Position numbers and translations under genes: made by a program
Shown here: positions 55,349 to 61,270 of the stretch, piece after piece
Numbering within the stretch: the first letter of the stretch is position 1
Layout of the letters: the number at the start of each line of letters is the position of its first letter
Notes under the pieces: model-generated
Databases searched by the model: none
What the model was told of the DNA's origin: nothing
The model's input: the letters and a program-made list of their open reading frames with translations, nothing else
DNA from: an uncultured delta proteobacterium
GTDB taxonomy: Bacteria > Myxococcota > Myxococcia > Myxococcales > Myxococcaceae
Assembly: GCA_963771175.1 (NCBI GenBank)
Contig: CAVYSY010000035.1
Span: 1 to 64,000, forward strand
Reading direction: 5' to 3'
DNA: 64,000 nt

Positions 55349-56018
55349 TCACCCCGGATCGATGGACGCGCTCCGGACTCCTGGCAGGGCACCGCGCAGC
55401 CCTTCGAGCAGCGCGAACCCATCCGTCTGCTCCGGGACGGCGAGCTCGACGACCGCGGTCCCCGCCAGCGACGACGCCGCCTGATCGAGCGTGAGGACGC
55501 GCGCTTCCGGGTGCAGCGCTCGGAGGGGCGGCAGGGCCGCGCTCAGGTTCTCCACGTCCAGGGACAGCTTCACCCACTGCGGGCGACGCTGCTGCCGTCG
55601 AGTCCAGGACCATCAGCACGGCGCCGAGGAAGAGCGTCGCGCACAGGGCGATCTGGAAGGCGCCCAATCCACAGGCCATGCCCACGCCGATCAGCACGAA
55701 CATGACGGCCGCGTCGCGCGAGTCCTTGATGCCCGAGCGGAAGCGGATGAAGCCGCCGAGGCCCACCAGTCCGAAGGCCCGGGACATGCTGTCGCCGATG
55801 ACCGTCGTCATCACCGCTCCGGCCACGGCGATCAGCAGTTGGGTGTGCACGGTCTCCTGCACCGTGGCCGGGACGTTCGGCATCCACCTGCGCCAGGGTC
55901 GGTAGGCCAGGAGCGCGCCGAGCACCAGGGCGAGGCTGAAGCGCATCAGCGCCTCGAGGACGGACAGGACATGGGGGCTGACGGAGGCCCCCTGCGTCAG
56001 GACATCAGGCGGAGGCAT
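55349..56018 (-). CDS. DUF4956 / MgtC-SapB-like membrane protein; frameshift near 55590
   Basis: About four TMs with IGDSMSRAFGLVGLGGFIRFRSGIKDSRD and IGVGMACG; soluble tail continues in ORF 55349..55573. Confidence 0.8.
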
Positions 56019-57687
56019 CGCGGAGCTCCTGGGTGTTGTCCACCGCGGTCCGGGCGGACTGGCGCAGCAGGGCGAAATCGTAAGGGTGGTTTTCCAGCAG
56101 CCGCTCGATGAGCGATCGTCCCCGGGGGGTGGGGGCCAGGGAACCCAGGCTCTTCACCGTGGCCGCGGGCCAGGTGTCCGCCAGCGCCGTGCGCAACTTC
56201 CACGCCGTGGCCCCCTCCATTCCCTCGAAGGACTCCAGGGCTTCCTCGCACTGGACGCCGAAGGACTCGCGCAAGGCCCAGGCCCGGGGGCTGTCCAGTC
56301 CGGCCAGGGTGCCGAGGACCGCTCGGGGCGCTCGCGCGACGTGCTGCTCGCGCAGCTCCCAGGCGCGTTCGCTGTCGAGACCCTCCAATGAGCGCAGCAC
56401 GGCATCCGGTGCCGTCTCCCAGGCGCGCTGGCGCCAGACCCAGGCCAGCTCGCTGTCGAGCCCTCGGATGGCGCGGCAGGCGACGCGCGCCACCCGCTCC
56501 AGGCAGAGCGCTGCTTCTCCGCCCATGTCCGAGAGCCAGCGGGTCCGCACGCTCCACGCCTGCTCCCCCTCGAGCCCCGCGACGGAGGTGGCCACCTGCT
56601 CGGCGGCGGAGAAGTAGAGGCGCTCGCGCATCTTCCACGCCCTCTCCGAGTCGAGCCCGTCGAGCGAGTCCGCGACGGCCGCGGGCGCCCGGGTCTCCCA
56701 CCGCTCCCGGAGCTCCCACGCCTCCGGAGCCTCCGCGGCCAGGTTCTTCAACGAGCCGAGCACCTGCACCGGAGCGGCCTCCTCCAACTGCTTCCGCAGG
56801 GCCCACGCGTTCTCGTCCGTGAGCCCGGACAGCCCGTAGGCGATCAGCTCGGGGCACCGGGAGGCCAGGCGCTTCCGCCGCTCGTCGATGTCCGCACCTT
56901 CCAGGCCGGAGAGGAACCACGCGGCGAGCTGCGGCTCCTCATCCATCCAGCGATCCAGCCGCCCGAGGAACCGGCCTCGCGCCTCCGCCAGTGAGCGGAT
57001 GGGCGTGGCCGGACGCATGCGCGGGGGAGGCAACGAGGGGGCCTCGCCGCGCTTCGCCCGCAGTACCTCCTGGACCAGACGGGCCACGAGCTCGTCGAGT
57101 GTCACGTCCGCGTTCTCGATGACGCTCCAGCGGTCGGGGGACTCCGCGGCCAGGGCCCGGTAGCCCGCGCGCAGTCGCGCCTGCAGTCCCGTCCCCGTCA
57201 GTCCCTTCCGGGACGGAGTGTCCTGCGGCGGCGCCAGCAGCTTCGAGACGCGGCGGCGGGCCCGCGCGATCGCCGGGTCCACGTCGATGAGGAACACCCG
57301 ATCCGGCTGAAGCCCCCGGGCACAGGCGGCCAGCACCGGCCGTACCTCGTGCTCCGTGAGACCTCGTCCCCAGCGGGCGAGCACCTCCGCGGTGTAGAGG
57401 AAGCGGTCGGCGATGACGATCTCATGCTCCGCGAGCGCCGGGCGCGTCACCTCTTCCAGGAGCTGCGTCTCTCGCGCGGCGTAGAGCAGCAGCTCGGCCA
57501 TGGGCGTGAGCGCGAGGTTGATGGGATTCCGAGTGAAGCGCCGCAGCCCCTCGGACACGGGGGATGCCAGCTTGCCGTCCTCGCGGACGTGACGCACGCG
57601 GAGCCCCGCCCGGCGCAGCTCGCGCGCCACGCGGTTGGACAGCGTCGTCTTGCCCGAGCCGTCGATTCCTTCAAAGACAATCAGCAT
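56005..57687 (-). CDS. Thymidylate-kinase-like P-loop kinase fused to a ~28-aa helical repeat array
   Basis: MLIVFEGIDGSGKTT, RED, ELLLYAAR, ADRF, PD; repeated L.GLDSERAW.LRE. Confidence 0.85.
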   Translation of the reverse strand: MLIVFEGIDGSGKTTLSNRVARELRRAGLRVRHVREDGKLASPVSEGLRRFTRNPINLALTPMAELLLYAARETQLLEEVTRPALAEHEIVIADRFLYTAEVLARWGRGLTEHEVRPVLAACARGLQPDRVFLIDVDPAIARARRRVSKLLAPPQDTPSRKGLTGTGLQARLRAGYRALAAESPDRWSVIENADVTLDELVARLVQEVLRAKRGEAPSLPPPRMRPATPIRSLAEARGRFLGRLDRWMDEEPQLAAWFLSGLEGADIDERRKRLASRCPELIAYGLSGLTDENAWALRKQLEEAAPVQVLGSLKNLAAEAPEAWELRERWETRAPAAVADSLDGLDSERAWKMRERLYFSAAEQVATSVAGLEGEQAWSVRTRWLSDMGGEAALCLERVARVACRAIRGLDSELAWVWRQRAWETAPDAVLRSLEGLDSERAWELREQHVARAPRAVLGTLAGLDSPRAWALRESFGVQCEEALESFEGMEGATAWKLRTALADTWPAATVKSLGSLAPTPRGRSLIERLLENHPYDFALLRQSARTAVDNTQELRDASA

Positions 57688-59659: not shown

Positions 59660-61270
59660 GGGGTGGTGCTGAAAGCTGCCTGGACCTCGCCCTGGCGCCT
59701 CGCGGCGAAGTTCAGCAGGCCGCTCGTGCCGGTGAGCGCGTCCTGGAACTCCTGGGCGCTGTTCAGGAAGGTGAAGCCCGGCTGCTCCGCGTTCTCACCC
59801 ACCACATACGGGGCGATGAGTGCGTGCTCCGCGCTCAGGCGCTCCCGCAGGCTCTCCGGGGAGAGCGGACCCTGCACCACCTCCAGGGCATACTGCGCGT
59901 AGCTGGCCCGGTAGGTGGGGTCGTCGAGCAGGTAGCGGATGAGCGGCCAGGTCGCGTCCACGGTGCTCTGCGTCAGCGACGTCGCCCGCCCCATGCCGTC
60001 ACCCATGGACCGGTCATGGTCCCAGGTAATCCAGTGCAGGCGCCCGCCATCCCCCGGGTGGGCATAGAGGTAGTAGTTGTGCGACATGGCCCCGTAGGTG
60101 TCCCAGTTCTGCAGCACCGCGTTGACCGCGAGCCACTTGAGGAAGCCAGGGACGTTCAGCTTCTCCTCGAGGCGCGCGCGCCAGGCCGCCGCGTCCGTGC
60201 GGTCCGAGTTGAGCGCGGCGATGGCCTCCTCCACGGGCGCCCAGTTGTTCTCCGCGGCCTTCGTCTCCGGCTCGAAGGAGGCCGAGTCGAAGGCCTGCCA
60301 CCGGGCCCCCGTGCCATCCGCCTCGTAGAGCGCGCCGCTGTCGTCACCGAAGTTGCGGGTCGAGCAGCGAATCCTGCGGGTCCTCGGAGAGCGTGTAGAG
60401 GCCGAAGTACTGGGAGCCCTCTCCGTGGTCCACGTACAGGGCGACGAAGGAGGTGTAGCTGGTCGGCACTCCGGCCGCGCGGAAGATGTCCGTGGCCACC
60501 TTGTTGCGGATCAGCGACTTGTCGGCCACGGAGTTGGAGAGGGACAGCTTGTCGAAGCCGTAGAAGCGCTGGTCCTCGATCTCCGGGTGATCGTCCTCGA
60601 ACTCGTCGAAGTTCAACCGCAGCGGCAGCTTGCCCACGCCGCTGCTCCACGCCTGCGCCAGCGAGGAGTTGCCCTTGAAGCGGATCCCCACGTACCACCA
60701 GGTCTTGCCCTCGAAGCGAACCGTCGAGGGCACGTACACCGGCGTGTTGGGGATGATGTCCCCGGCGCCGCCTCCACCCGGTGCGCCGCCTCCACCCGGT
60801 GCGCCGCCTCCACCCGGGCCGCCCGGGGGACGGCACAGGAGTTGCCCGTCCGGCGTGCTGCCGCAGGTGCTGGTGAAGGCAGTGCCCTGGATGGTGGCGC
60901 TGCAGGAGTCACCCGCCGCCTTGCCCTGGCAGGCCTCCACGAGCTCGGTGGGGAGCATCCCACCGCCGCCCGGGCCACCCGGCGGGACGCCACCATCGGT
61001 CGTCCCGCCGCCCGGGACTCCGCCCGTGCGCGAGCCGAACGCGCCCGCCATGGCGGTCATGTCGTCCTGCATCTTCTGCCAGTCCTCGGGCGCGATGGTC
61101 ACGTCGAGCCGCAGCACCTTCCCCTCGGGAAAGACGACGTCATAGGCGGGGGTGGCGTCCTTCCCGTGCGTCGCCTCGGTCCATCCTTCGGGGCGATCGA
61201 CGCCTCCACAGGCGGTGCTGAAGGTGAAGGCGAGTGCGGCGAGTGCTCCAAGACGCGGACTTCTTTGCAT
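59656..61270 (-). CDS. cotH: CotH kinase family lipoprotein; frameshift near 60357
   Basis: Lipobox STAC; GIRFKGNSS, DKSLIR, YFGLYTL.E, NWDTY...HNYYLY...WDHD; removing one base joins ORFs 60344..61330 and 59656..60234. Confidence 0.88.
60765..60817. repeat. 18-bp tandem repeat, three copies, encoding (PGGGGA)n inside cotH
   Basis: GCGCCGCCTCCACCCGGT at 60765, 60783 and 60801 (last copy 17/18). Confidence 0.9.

Follow-up and report, generated by a model that had tools for sequence, protein, structure and literature searches.

A conserved CotH-VTC-porin-Tmk-solenoid-DUF4956 operon preceded by a Pho-box-like operator in a myxobacterial genome: a candidate envelope polyphosphate module

Why should a bacterium keep the gene for a Vtc4-like polyphosphate (polyP) enzyme in one operon with genes for an exported kinase-fold lipoprotein, an outer-membrane protein, a thymidylate-kinase-like fusion and an MgtC-like membrane protein? 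The question is raised by five genes on the minus strand (61270-55349) of a stretch of 64,000 nucleotides, hereafter the window, which is the start of contig CAVYSY010000035.1 (C35) in a 9.8 Mb, 82%-complete myxobacterial assembly; the closest named homologues come from Archangium. Bacterial polyP synthesis is credited to the cytoplasmic enzymes PPK1 and PPK2. An earlier interpretation of the bare letters of the window (the sequence-only reading) had proposed that the operon encodes a split VTC-like machine making and translocating polyP. As detailed below, the operon is a real and conserved envelope module, and it probably belongs to the Pho regulon, i.e. is induced by phosphate starvation, as judged from its upstream sequence. 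The relevant features are the following.

61364..61392, minus strand: Pho-box-like operator of three repeats in 11-bp phase, lying ~95-120 nt ahead of the start of cotH
59656..61270, minus strand: CotH-family kinase-fold lipoprotein, ~540 aa, PF08757 in both halves
58889..59659, minus strand: Vtc4-like triphosphate tunnel enzyme, predicted cytoplasmic, 256 aa, PF09359
57687..58868, minus strand: outer-membrane beta-barrel-type protein with signal peptide, C-terminal Phe and a weak Porin_O_P match
56005..57687, minus strand: fusion of a thymidylate-kinase-fold domain (PF02223) and an alpha-solenoid, from the predicted structure
55349..56018, minus strand: DUF4956/MgtC-like inner-membrane protein, 222 aa in relatives, PF16316 and a weak MgtC match

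The order cotH, VTC, porin, Tmk-solenoid, DUF4956 and the four gene junctions are exactly as had been read from the letters (ATGA at 59659-59656, a gap of 20 nt at 58888-58869, TAATG at 57689-57685 and an overlap of 14 nt at 56018-56005), and a Pfam scan returned all five expected families, with E-values of 2e-22 and 8e-34 for the two halves of CotH (PF08757), 1e-17 for VTC (PF09359), 4e-7 for Porin_O_P (PF07396), 9e-21 for Thymidylate_kin (PF02223) and 3e-8 for DUF4956 (PF16316). What the sequence-only reading had missed is that two of the genes are split over two frames in the assembly, cotH by one surplus base near 60359-60361 and the DUF4956 gene by one at 55593, so that its end points presuppose read-through. 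These frameshifts are assembly errors, because both genes occupy a single frame in six same-genus relatives, the surplus base is missing from close-strain contigs (in 4 of 4 runs for cotH and 3 of 4 for DUF4956), and the assembly is rich in indels, 3 of 18 orthologous loci outside the operon being likewise split. The possibility that cotH and DUF4956 are pseudogenes is thereby ruled out. Neither a sigma-70-like promoter nor a minus-strand terminator was found.

Conservation was examined in two sets of loci. The first comprises 68 Myxococcota loci, 60 of them hand-picked for diversity plus 8 others, and for this reason the counts given for it are not frequencies. The second comprises the best 80 of at least 600 matches obtained by scanning GTDB genomes with one DUF4956 subfamily; it covers Actinomycetota, Chloroflexota, Myxococcota, Gemmatimonadota, Patescibacteria, one spirochaete and one archaeon, and at least two of its loci duplicate members of the first. 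The exact five-gene order recurs in 13 of the 68 Myxococcota loci, so that the conservation of gene order that had been anticipated is real and the operon is not a chance arrangement. Another 13 loci show a sister order, porin-VTC-Tmk-DUF4956, mostly followed by a gene for a DUF3108-like lipoprotein and lacking CotH (the lipoprotein is present and CotH lacking in 11 loci). The sister operon is widespread in the family and is present in the genome under study as well (contig C33, 86063-91080, locus L010: porin, VTC, Tmk fusion, DUF4956, DUF3108-like lipoprotein), where a purple acid phosphatase gene lies two genes further on. In a VTC tree made by a quick method (80 rows), the exact-order type and the sister type each form a well-supported group on a long branch; their sisterhood is unsupported (11). 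With the VTC protein of the window as query, close orthologues (E <1e-100) were found in 6 of 17 same-genus genomes and in 0 of 23 more distant ones; the Tmk-solenoid gene is present in all 17 of the former.

The best-80 set gives the wider picture. VTC occurs in 79 loci, CotH in 74, a porin in 10 and the Tmk fusion in none; VTC lies directly upstream of DUF4956 in 79/80, across many phyla, which bears out the linkage of these two families, and CotH, VTC and DUF4956 occur together in 73/80. In the Myxococcota set, a porin was found in 36 loci, HlyD and TolC genes with DUF4956 in 12 (no ABC or RND pump was seen in these), DUF2490 in 5 and an exported PPDK-like protein in 8; among the loci examined, an outer-membrane partner is confined to diderms. 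From these counts, the core of the module is VTC plus DUF4956, the exported partner being usual but exchangeable; the outer-membrane partner tracks cell architecture, and the Tmk fusion is a lineage add-on. The porin, which had been taken as a distinctive trait of this version, is less of one, as a porin accompanies the module in other lineages too. Genes for DUF47 and Pit follow the module in relatives and in Amycolatopsis, and a purple acid phosphatase gene adjoins 10 of 29 Tmk-containing loci. Fusion proteins were considered as proof of coupling and discarded: three DUF4956-VTC and three DUF4956-CotH fusions were found among 49 longer homologues, all of them single sequences and several with garbled, frameshift-like junctions, so they were not counted.

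The new element of this locus lies upstream of cotH, where the pattern GTCAC-N6-GTAAA-N6-GTCAC, of which the sequence-only reading made no mention, is found at 61390-61364. Of 15 upstream regions taken from operons of this type, 13 carry the triple pattern within diverged flanks, and one of the two apparent misses proved to be a mis-anchored region that does carry the site, making it the 14th. A matrix built from these sites alone gave four triple matches in the whole genome (one in one shuffle): one for this operon, one for a DUF47-pit operon, one for the response regulator gene with which the pst cluster opens, and one for a TetR gene. When 6276 upstream regions were scanned for two repeats, phosphate genes took four of the first six places: pstC, the gene of a 5'-nucleotidase lipoprotein, and those of two PhoB-like regulators, one accompanied by DUF47 and pit and one belonging to the pst cluster. 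A protein kinase and a small open reading frame filled the remaining places. Among NCBIfam models, these regulators fit PhoB best, yet they score under its cut-off. In five relatives the exact triple pattern matched seven times (control 1): before five operons of this type, a cotH beside a DUF47 gene, and a regulator-kinase pair. An exact two-repeat pattern, searched in five genomes, did no better than its control. No box was seen within 197 nt upstream of the sister operon of this genome, and the sister operons of two relatives do carry it. An 11-nt direct-repeat operator is thus common to the operon and to the pst/pho genes of the same genome. The conserved triple 11-bp repeat before cotH, also marking pst, pit, PhoB-like and nucleotidase genes, is new here.

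A similar signal, with a different consensus, was seen in a second phylum. In 38 actinobacterial loci, chosen by title from the best-80 set, VTC is preceded in 29 by two GTTCA motifs phased at 11 or 22 nt, one mismatch being allowed, as compared with 6 of 206 other promoters of the same loci and with 4, 0, 1 and 2 at wrong spacings; no p-value is given, because many of these genomes are close kin. According to the available text of PMC4415409, GTTCACC is the PHO box of Streptomyces coelicolor, and PHO boxes are built of 11-nt repeats. Because of the operator shared with phosphate genes and of the actinobacterial PHO box, the module looks Pho-regulated, and the occurrence of such putative boxes in two phyla supports a Pho-regulated polyP module. 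A role in phosphate metabolism, which had been proposed from the gene content, is newly backed by the Pho box.

As to the enzyme, a profile of 15 family sequences recognized Vtc4 at E 1e-22, against only 0.18 for class IV adenylyl cyclase; Vtc4 was the only triphosphate tunnel metalloenzyme (TTM) well matched, so that the protein is Vtc4-like and not cyclase-like, as had been supposed. Nine Vtc4 residues, essential for making polyP, coordinate triphosphate and Mn, according to the accessible part of bioRxiv 10.1101/2023.01.27.525886. Eight of the nine are identical in the window protein (the equivalents of R264, R266, K281, Y359, R361, E426, S457 and K458), and the ninth, K200, is Arg here and Lys in 40/53 family members; R264, K281, R361, E426, S457 and K458 are invariant in 53/53, as is K428, and the equivalents of the exit residues K294, R296, R373 and K428 are basic. 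According to PMC4641920, K458 takes part in catalysis in Vtc4, whereas a plant tripolyphosphatase can do without it, and the region that is basic in Vtc4 forms an acidic patch in TTMs that hydrolyse. The protein stands alone, with PF09359 only, lacking an N-terminal SPX domain and a fused three-helix membrane domain; a hydrophobic N-terminus is missing from 129/130 family members. The active site is of Vtc4 type, and the enzyme would synthesize polyP from ATP.

The model of an intact DUF4956 orthologue (locus L014, predicted local distance difference test, pLDDT, 84) shows five helices and an ACT domain, the latter matching, among many ACT folds, the C-terminal domains of MgtC (2lqj, Z 8.0, root-mean-square deviation (rmsd) 3.5, 80 aligned), and the protein is MgtC-like by Pfam, NCBIfam and fold. 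An Arg-aromatic-Arg/Lys motif closes helix 3 in 138/142 sequences. As 23 of the 49 longer homologues carry a signal peptide and an exported domain ahead of DUF4956, the sequences imply an N-out/C-in topology, with the ACT domain and the Arg motif cytoplasmic. In a separate observation, the exported domain is a PF06439 sugar-binding-like one in P0121, P0136 and 21 more. By analogy, the motif would sit where VTC has its basic rings; this topology fits a basic cytoplasmic vestibule and also an ordinary MgtC-like regulator. Therefore, of the proposed split VTC machine, the pairing of VTC with DUF4956 stands, and the case for DUF4956 as counterpart of Vtc1 is weakened: since it is a five-helix MgtC-type protein with an ACT domain and no Vtc1 match, the comparison is at best an analogy. 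A complex prediction for three copies of DUF4956 with VTC (L014 orthologues, with alignments) scored 0.00 in both runs against a mark of 0.32; the copy number was guessed, and the result is no evidence either way.

The CotH protein has a lipobox-like Cys21 and a Gly/Pro-rich insert, scores over the PF08757 cut-off and keeps the catalytic Asn-x-Asp and Trp-Asp-x-Asp motifs; its orthologue matches Bacillus cereus CotH (5JD9) at E 1e-12. In the latter, adenine is sandwiched by Tyr142 and Trp245 (PMC12189002, in the part accessible). The Trp is kept here, together with a Tyr at or beside Tyr142, an assignment uncertain by one residue. ATP would then be the likelier donor, and the earlier suggestion that polyP serves CotH directly as phosphoryl donor is doubtful, because the adenine site is kept and CotH is replaced by a different lipoprotein in the sister operon. 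An N-terminal hydrophobic stretch was found in 102/106 CotH proteins and in 1/130 VTC proteins (CotH being extended upstream and VTC not), from which the third partner appears to be exported nearly always. In twelve loci (L018:6089-8503, L082:9223-11250 and 10 more, i.e. 8/68 and 4/80), the neighbour of VTC-DUF4956(-HlyD-TolC) is an exported lipoprotein that combines an ATP-grasp domain of PPDK type with a motif resembling a His swivel, possibly a periplasmic dikinase. In seven others (L092, L097, L099, L104, L105, L108 and L110), a membrane-anchored CotH-like protein of ~930 aa and an unannotated 186-aa gene precede VTC-DUF4956; the catalytic motifs of these long proteins are degenerate, being retained in 1 and 3 of 33.

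The outer-membrane protein starts at 58868 (GTG) or 58802 (ATG). Its Porin_O_P match is over the cut-off and spans residues 101-219 of 393 (profile 28-153 of 370), a C-terminal Phe is present in 29/46 called family members, and the protein shows hardly any similarity to the Porin_O_P protein encoded in the pst cluster. The assignment as an OprO/P-like porin holds at the level of a partial family match; the phosphate selectivity implied by the name does not follow, the Pfam match being partial and a search of the PDB having given no match.

The model of the Tmk fusion (pLDDT 91) comprises a TMK domain (1-212) and a helical solenoid (233-548) of ~27-residue repeats. The domain matches the TMK fold (Z 23.5, rmsd 1.6, 180 aligned) much better than PPK2 (Z 12.2, rmsd 4.2, 182 aligned), the Pfam scan of the fusion gave no match to PF03976 (PPK2), and the TIGR00041 score is 88 bits (cut-off 83). 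The P-loop Lys and the Asp-Arg motif are kept in 29/29 fusions. The Tyr-Gln motif after Asp-Arg, which we take to serve in dTMP binding, is missing in 29/29 and 110/110 fusions and present in 6/6 stand-alone tmk genes aligned, and a basic lid motif, [SG]RKG, has been gained in 108/110. A separate Tyr-Gln-type gene exists in 5/5 relatives tested, so that a role of the fusion as housekeeping dTMP kinase is unlikely; no such gene was found in this 82%-complete genome. It was also noted that in 3 of 4 same-genus genomes (L021-L024) the only Tyr-Gln tmk gene has Thr for the P-loop Lys. The fusion may thus be a polyanion- or nucleotide-handling protein not acting on dTMP.

Putting these elements together, we favour, with a probability of about 40%, a Pho-regulon envelope module for membrane-coupled synthesis of polyP into the periplasm, which most plausibly works like VTC yet is not a VTC member. 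Under phosphate limitation, a PhoB-type regulator would bind the triple repeat and induce the operon, the box being read from the sequence; the Vtc4-like enzyme would convert ATP to polyP on the cytoplasmic side of the inner membrane; an oligomer of DUF4956, its Arg motif in the cytoplasm, might hand the chain to the periplasm, by analogy with VTC; and the periplasm would serve as store or donor pool, like the yeast vacuole. An exchangeable exported partner (CotH here, a DUF3108-like, PPDK-like or Cthe_2159 protein elsewhere) would bind or use the polyP, and an outer-membrane barrel or TolC duct would link the periplasm to the outside, an outward direction being suggested by HlyD and TolC occurring without an ABC or RND pump. 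The Tmk-solenoid protein, the least certain step, may be a cytoplasmic lineage accessory, either a regulator binding polyanions or nucleotides or a nucleotide recycler. A second polyP enzyme suits a different compartment, because the genome already has a cytoplasmic PPK1 (15700-17862, minus strand, same contig, 38 kb from the operon). The same contig also encodes a membrane H+-pyrophosphatase (255-2273, plus strand, 53 kb away), and no Pho-type repeat pair was seen near either gene. A bolder version, i.e. a widespread Pho-controlled polyP synthase-translocase made of a Vtc4-type enzyme and an MgtC-family channel unrelated to Vtc1, providing an envelope phosphate store or a phosphoryl source for kinases, with a Tmk-derived solenoid replacing SPX as regulator in Myxococcaceae, is speculative, and we would bet against it as a whole.

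Several points weigh against the favoured reading. Phosphate export during starvation looks wasteful, and the regulon companions (OprO/P, Pit, Pst and phosphatases) are uptake genes. The position of Vtc4 R196 is Asp (14/53, this clade) and that of T198 is Glu (49/53), with a register mapping obtained by inference, and these are the positions where hydrolysing TTMs bear metal-binding glutamates. A DUF4956 profile search gave no Vtc1 sequence at E<=10, and five helices with an ACT domain are not the three helices of Vtc1. A fold search with the DUF4956 model listed no VTC membrane subunit, its lists being filled by the ACT domain and the membrane part barely probed; an atlas search with the membrane part returned DUF4956/MgtC clusters only. 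DUF4956 loci without VTC exist (e.g. L063, L096, L098, L101, L106, L113 and L119), and the six VTC or CotH fusion proteins cannot serve as evidence of coupling. Enzyme activity, interaction and localization are all predictions. Finally, deletion of the VTC gene in Streptococcus intermedius gave no clear phenotype in rich medium, according to the accessible parts of 10.1101/2024.04.20.589940 and PMC12345266.

The alternative that survives best, although we regard it as unlikely, is inward scavenging. Soil or prey would supply polyP, pyrophosphate or nucleotides, which would enter through the porin, be bound or trimmed by the exported partner and be imported by DUF4956, with the TTM hydrolysing polyP or running polyP + ADP to ATP and the Tmk-like protein handling the nucleotide. 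A Pho box in common with the pst, pit and 5'-nucleotidase genes is what such a system would be expected to have, and so are the neighbouring purple acid phosphatases and the acidic N-terminal motif of the VTC clade; OprO and OprP are uptake porins induced by Pi limitation in Pseudomonas aeruginosa (PMC9769906, as far as accessible). Against this, the HlyD-TolC variants suggest efflux, the invariant K458 and K428 are of polymerase type, and the phosphate selectivity of the porin is putative. Pho induction is known also for the yeast VTC genes and several bacterial ppk genes.

Somewhat less probable still is that nothing is translocated. The TTM would make or turn over cytoplasmic, possibly short, polyP, and DUF4956 would be an MgtC-like regulator, adjusting Pho signalling or the exported kinase in response to a metabolite sensed by its ACT domain. 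The consistent MgtC likeness of DUF4956 agrees with this, as do, in the available text of 10.1101/2024.04.20.589940 and PMC12345266, the action of Salmonella MgtC on PhoR and ATP synthase and, in the former preprint, the proposal of cytoplasmic polyP in S. intermedius; it leaves unexplained, however, the outer-membrane barrel or TolC duct of diderms and the near-invariant Arg motif. Least probable, and improbable in its own right, is a supply of nucleotide, in which DUF4956, TTM and the Tmk-like protein would export ATP (or swap it for ADP/AMP) for CotH phosphorylating envelope proteins or glycans (polyP as direct CotH donor being a sub-case): CotH is the commonest partner (74/80) with catalytic and adenine-binding residues kept, an unrelated exported ATP-grasp/His-swivel protein accompanies the module in 8/68 and 4/80 loci, and S. 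intermedius DUF4956 and CotH mutants both aggregate less (PMC12345266, accessible part), but the sister operon has neither kinase and ATP export needs no TTM enzyme.

Part of the module has been met before. The cotH/polyphosphate-polymerase/DUF4956 trio has been described as an accessory set of Gram-positive pel loci (bioRxiv 10.1101/768473) and is visible in a locus table for Clostridium perfringens (PMC2879425); deletions in S. intermedius kept Pel (10.1101/2024.04.20.589940; PMC12345266), and the pel papers report that no such trio was found outside pel loci. The set has the same three families, with an exported CotH and an MgtC-type membrane protein with ACT domain. The trio is contiguous in both, with the porin and the Tmk fusion placed between VTC and DUF4956 here. 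The differences are that there is no adjacent pelDEAFG, the host is diderm, and porin, Tmk-solenoid and Pho box are added. In contrast to what the pel papers report, all three families occur in 73 of the best-80 loci, and beside most of these no recurrent glycan-synthesis cluster was seen. The trio was thus known before, and the Pho box, the porin and Tmk-solenoid partners and the occurrence well beyond pel loci are additional here.

With eukaryotic VTC (Vtc4/Vtc3/Vtc1; 3G3Q, 7YTJ, 8I6V), the module has in common the tunnel enzyme with its eight residues and a small membrane partner with conserved basic residues; it differs in the missing SPX, the unfused enzyme, the MgtC-like partner and the acidic R196/T198 positions. 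Bacillus CotH (5JD9) is alike in kinase motifs and adenine Trp, whereas here the protein is a lipoprotein of a diderm that forms no endospores. Compared with thymidylate kinase, the fusion retains the fold, the P-loop Lys and Asp-Arg, and differs in the lost Tyr-Gln, the basic lid and the solenoid. The likeness to P. aeruginosa OprO/OprP and its Pho regulon lies in the Porin_O_P match, which covers under a third of the protein, and in the 11-nt repeat operator. An overplus response is described in the accessible text of PMC7332688, whose references list a 1966 paper on overplus in Myxococcus xanthus. In the literature searched, most subscription papers being outside reach, neither bacterial VTC-domain proteins nor DUF4956, the Tmk fusion or a Pho box on this module were found to have been the subject of a functional study.

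The system bears on the route by which polyP, or phosphate at the ATP level, gets to the envelope, and on what CotH kinases use in bacteria that form no spores. VTC and DUF4956 are a common pair (DUF4956 was detected in 128 of 251 Myxococcota genomes searched), and the module is present in genetically tractable myxobacteria and actinobacteria. The Pho box supplies the test condition so far missing, i.e. phosphate starvation, since the phenotypes of the earlier deletion mutants were assessed in rich medium, in which an operon under Pho control would be quiet. If the transport role is true, polyP would be the first transported substrate for the MgtC family.

The operon is flanked downstream by ABC transporter and mdoG/mdoH-type genes, and upstream by an intron remnant and a non-ribosomal peptide synthetase (NRPS) gene. 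The two-gene ABC exporter directly downstream (52329-55235, minus strand) has several breaking indels, which close-strain contigs lack; in relatives its place is taken by DUF47/pit or DUF3616. The remnant is the 3' end of a group II intron (61841-61951, plus strand; RF00029, 38.4 bits, gathering score 40, E 7.5e-6), placed between the operon promoter and the NRPS gene, and the match of close-strain contig X1 to the window stops at 61425. A plasmid search gave three weak matches. Elsewhere in the window, an AT-richer stretch encodes a bacterial hemocyanin/tyrosinase-domain protein (11439-13259, minus strand) and a Tle3-like phospholipase-domain protein (25107-26042, minus strand), and a coding tandem repeat of ~168 nt in 4.2 copies (19548-20307) lies inside the gene for an unannotated helical protein of 412 aa.

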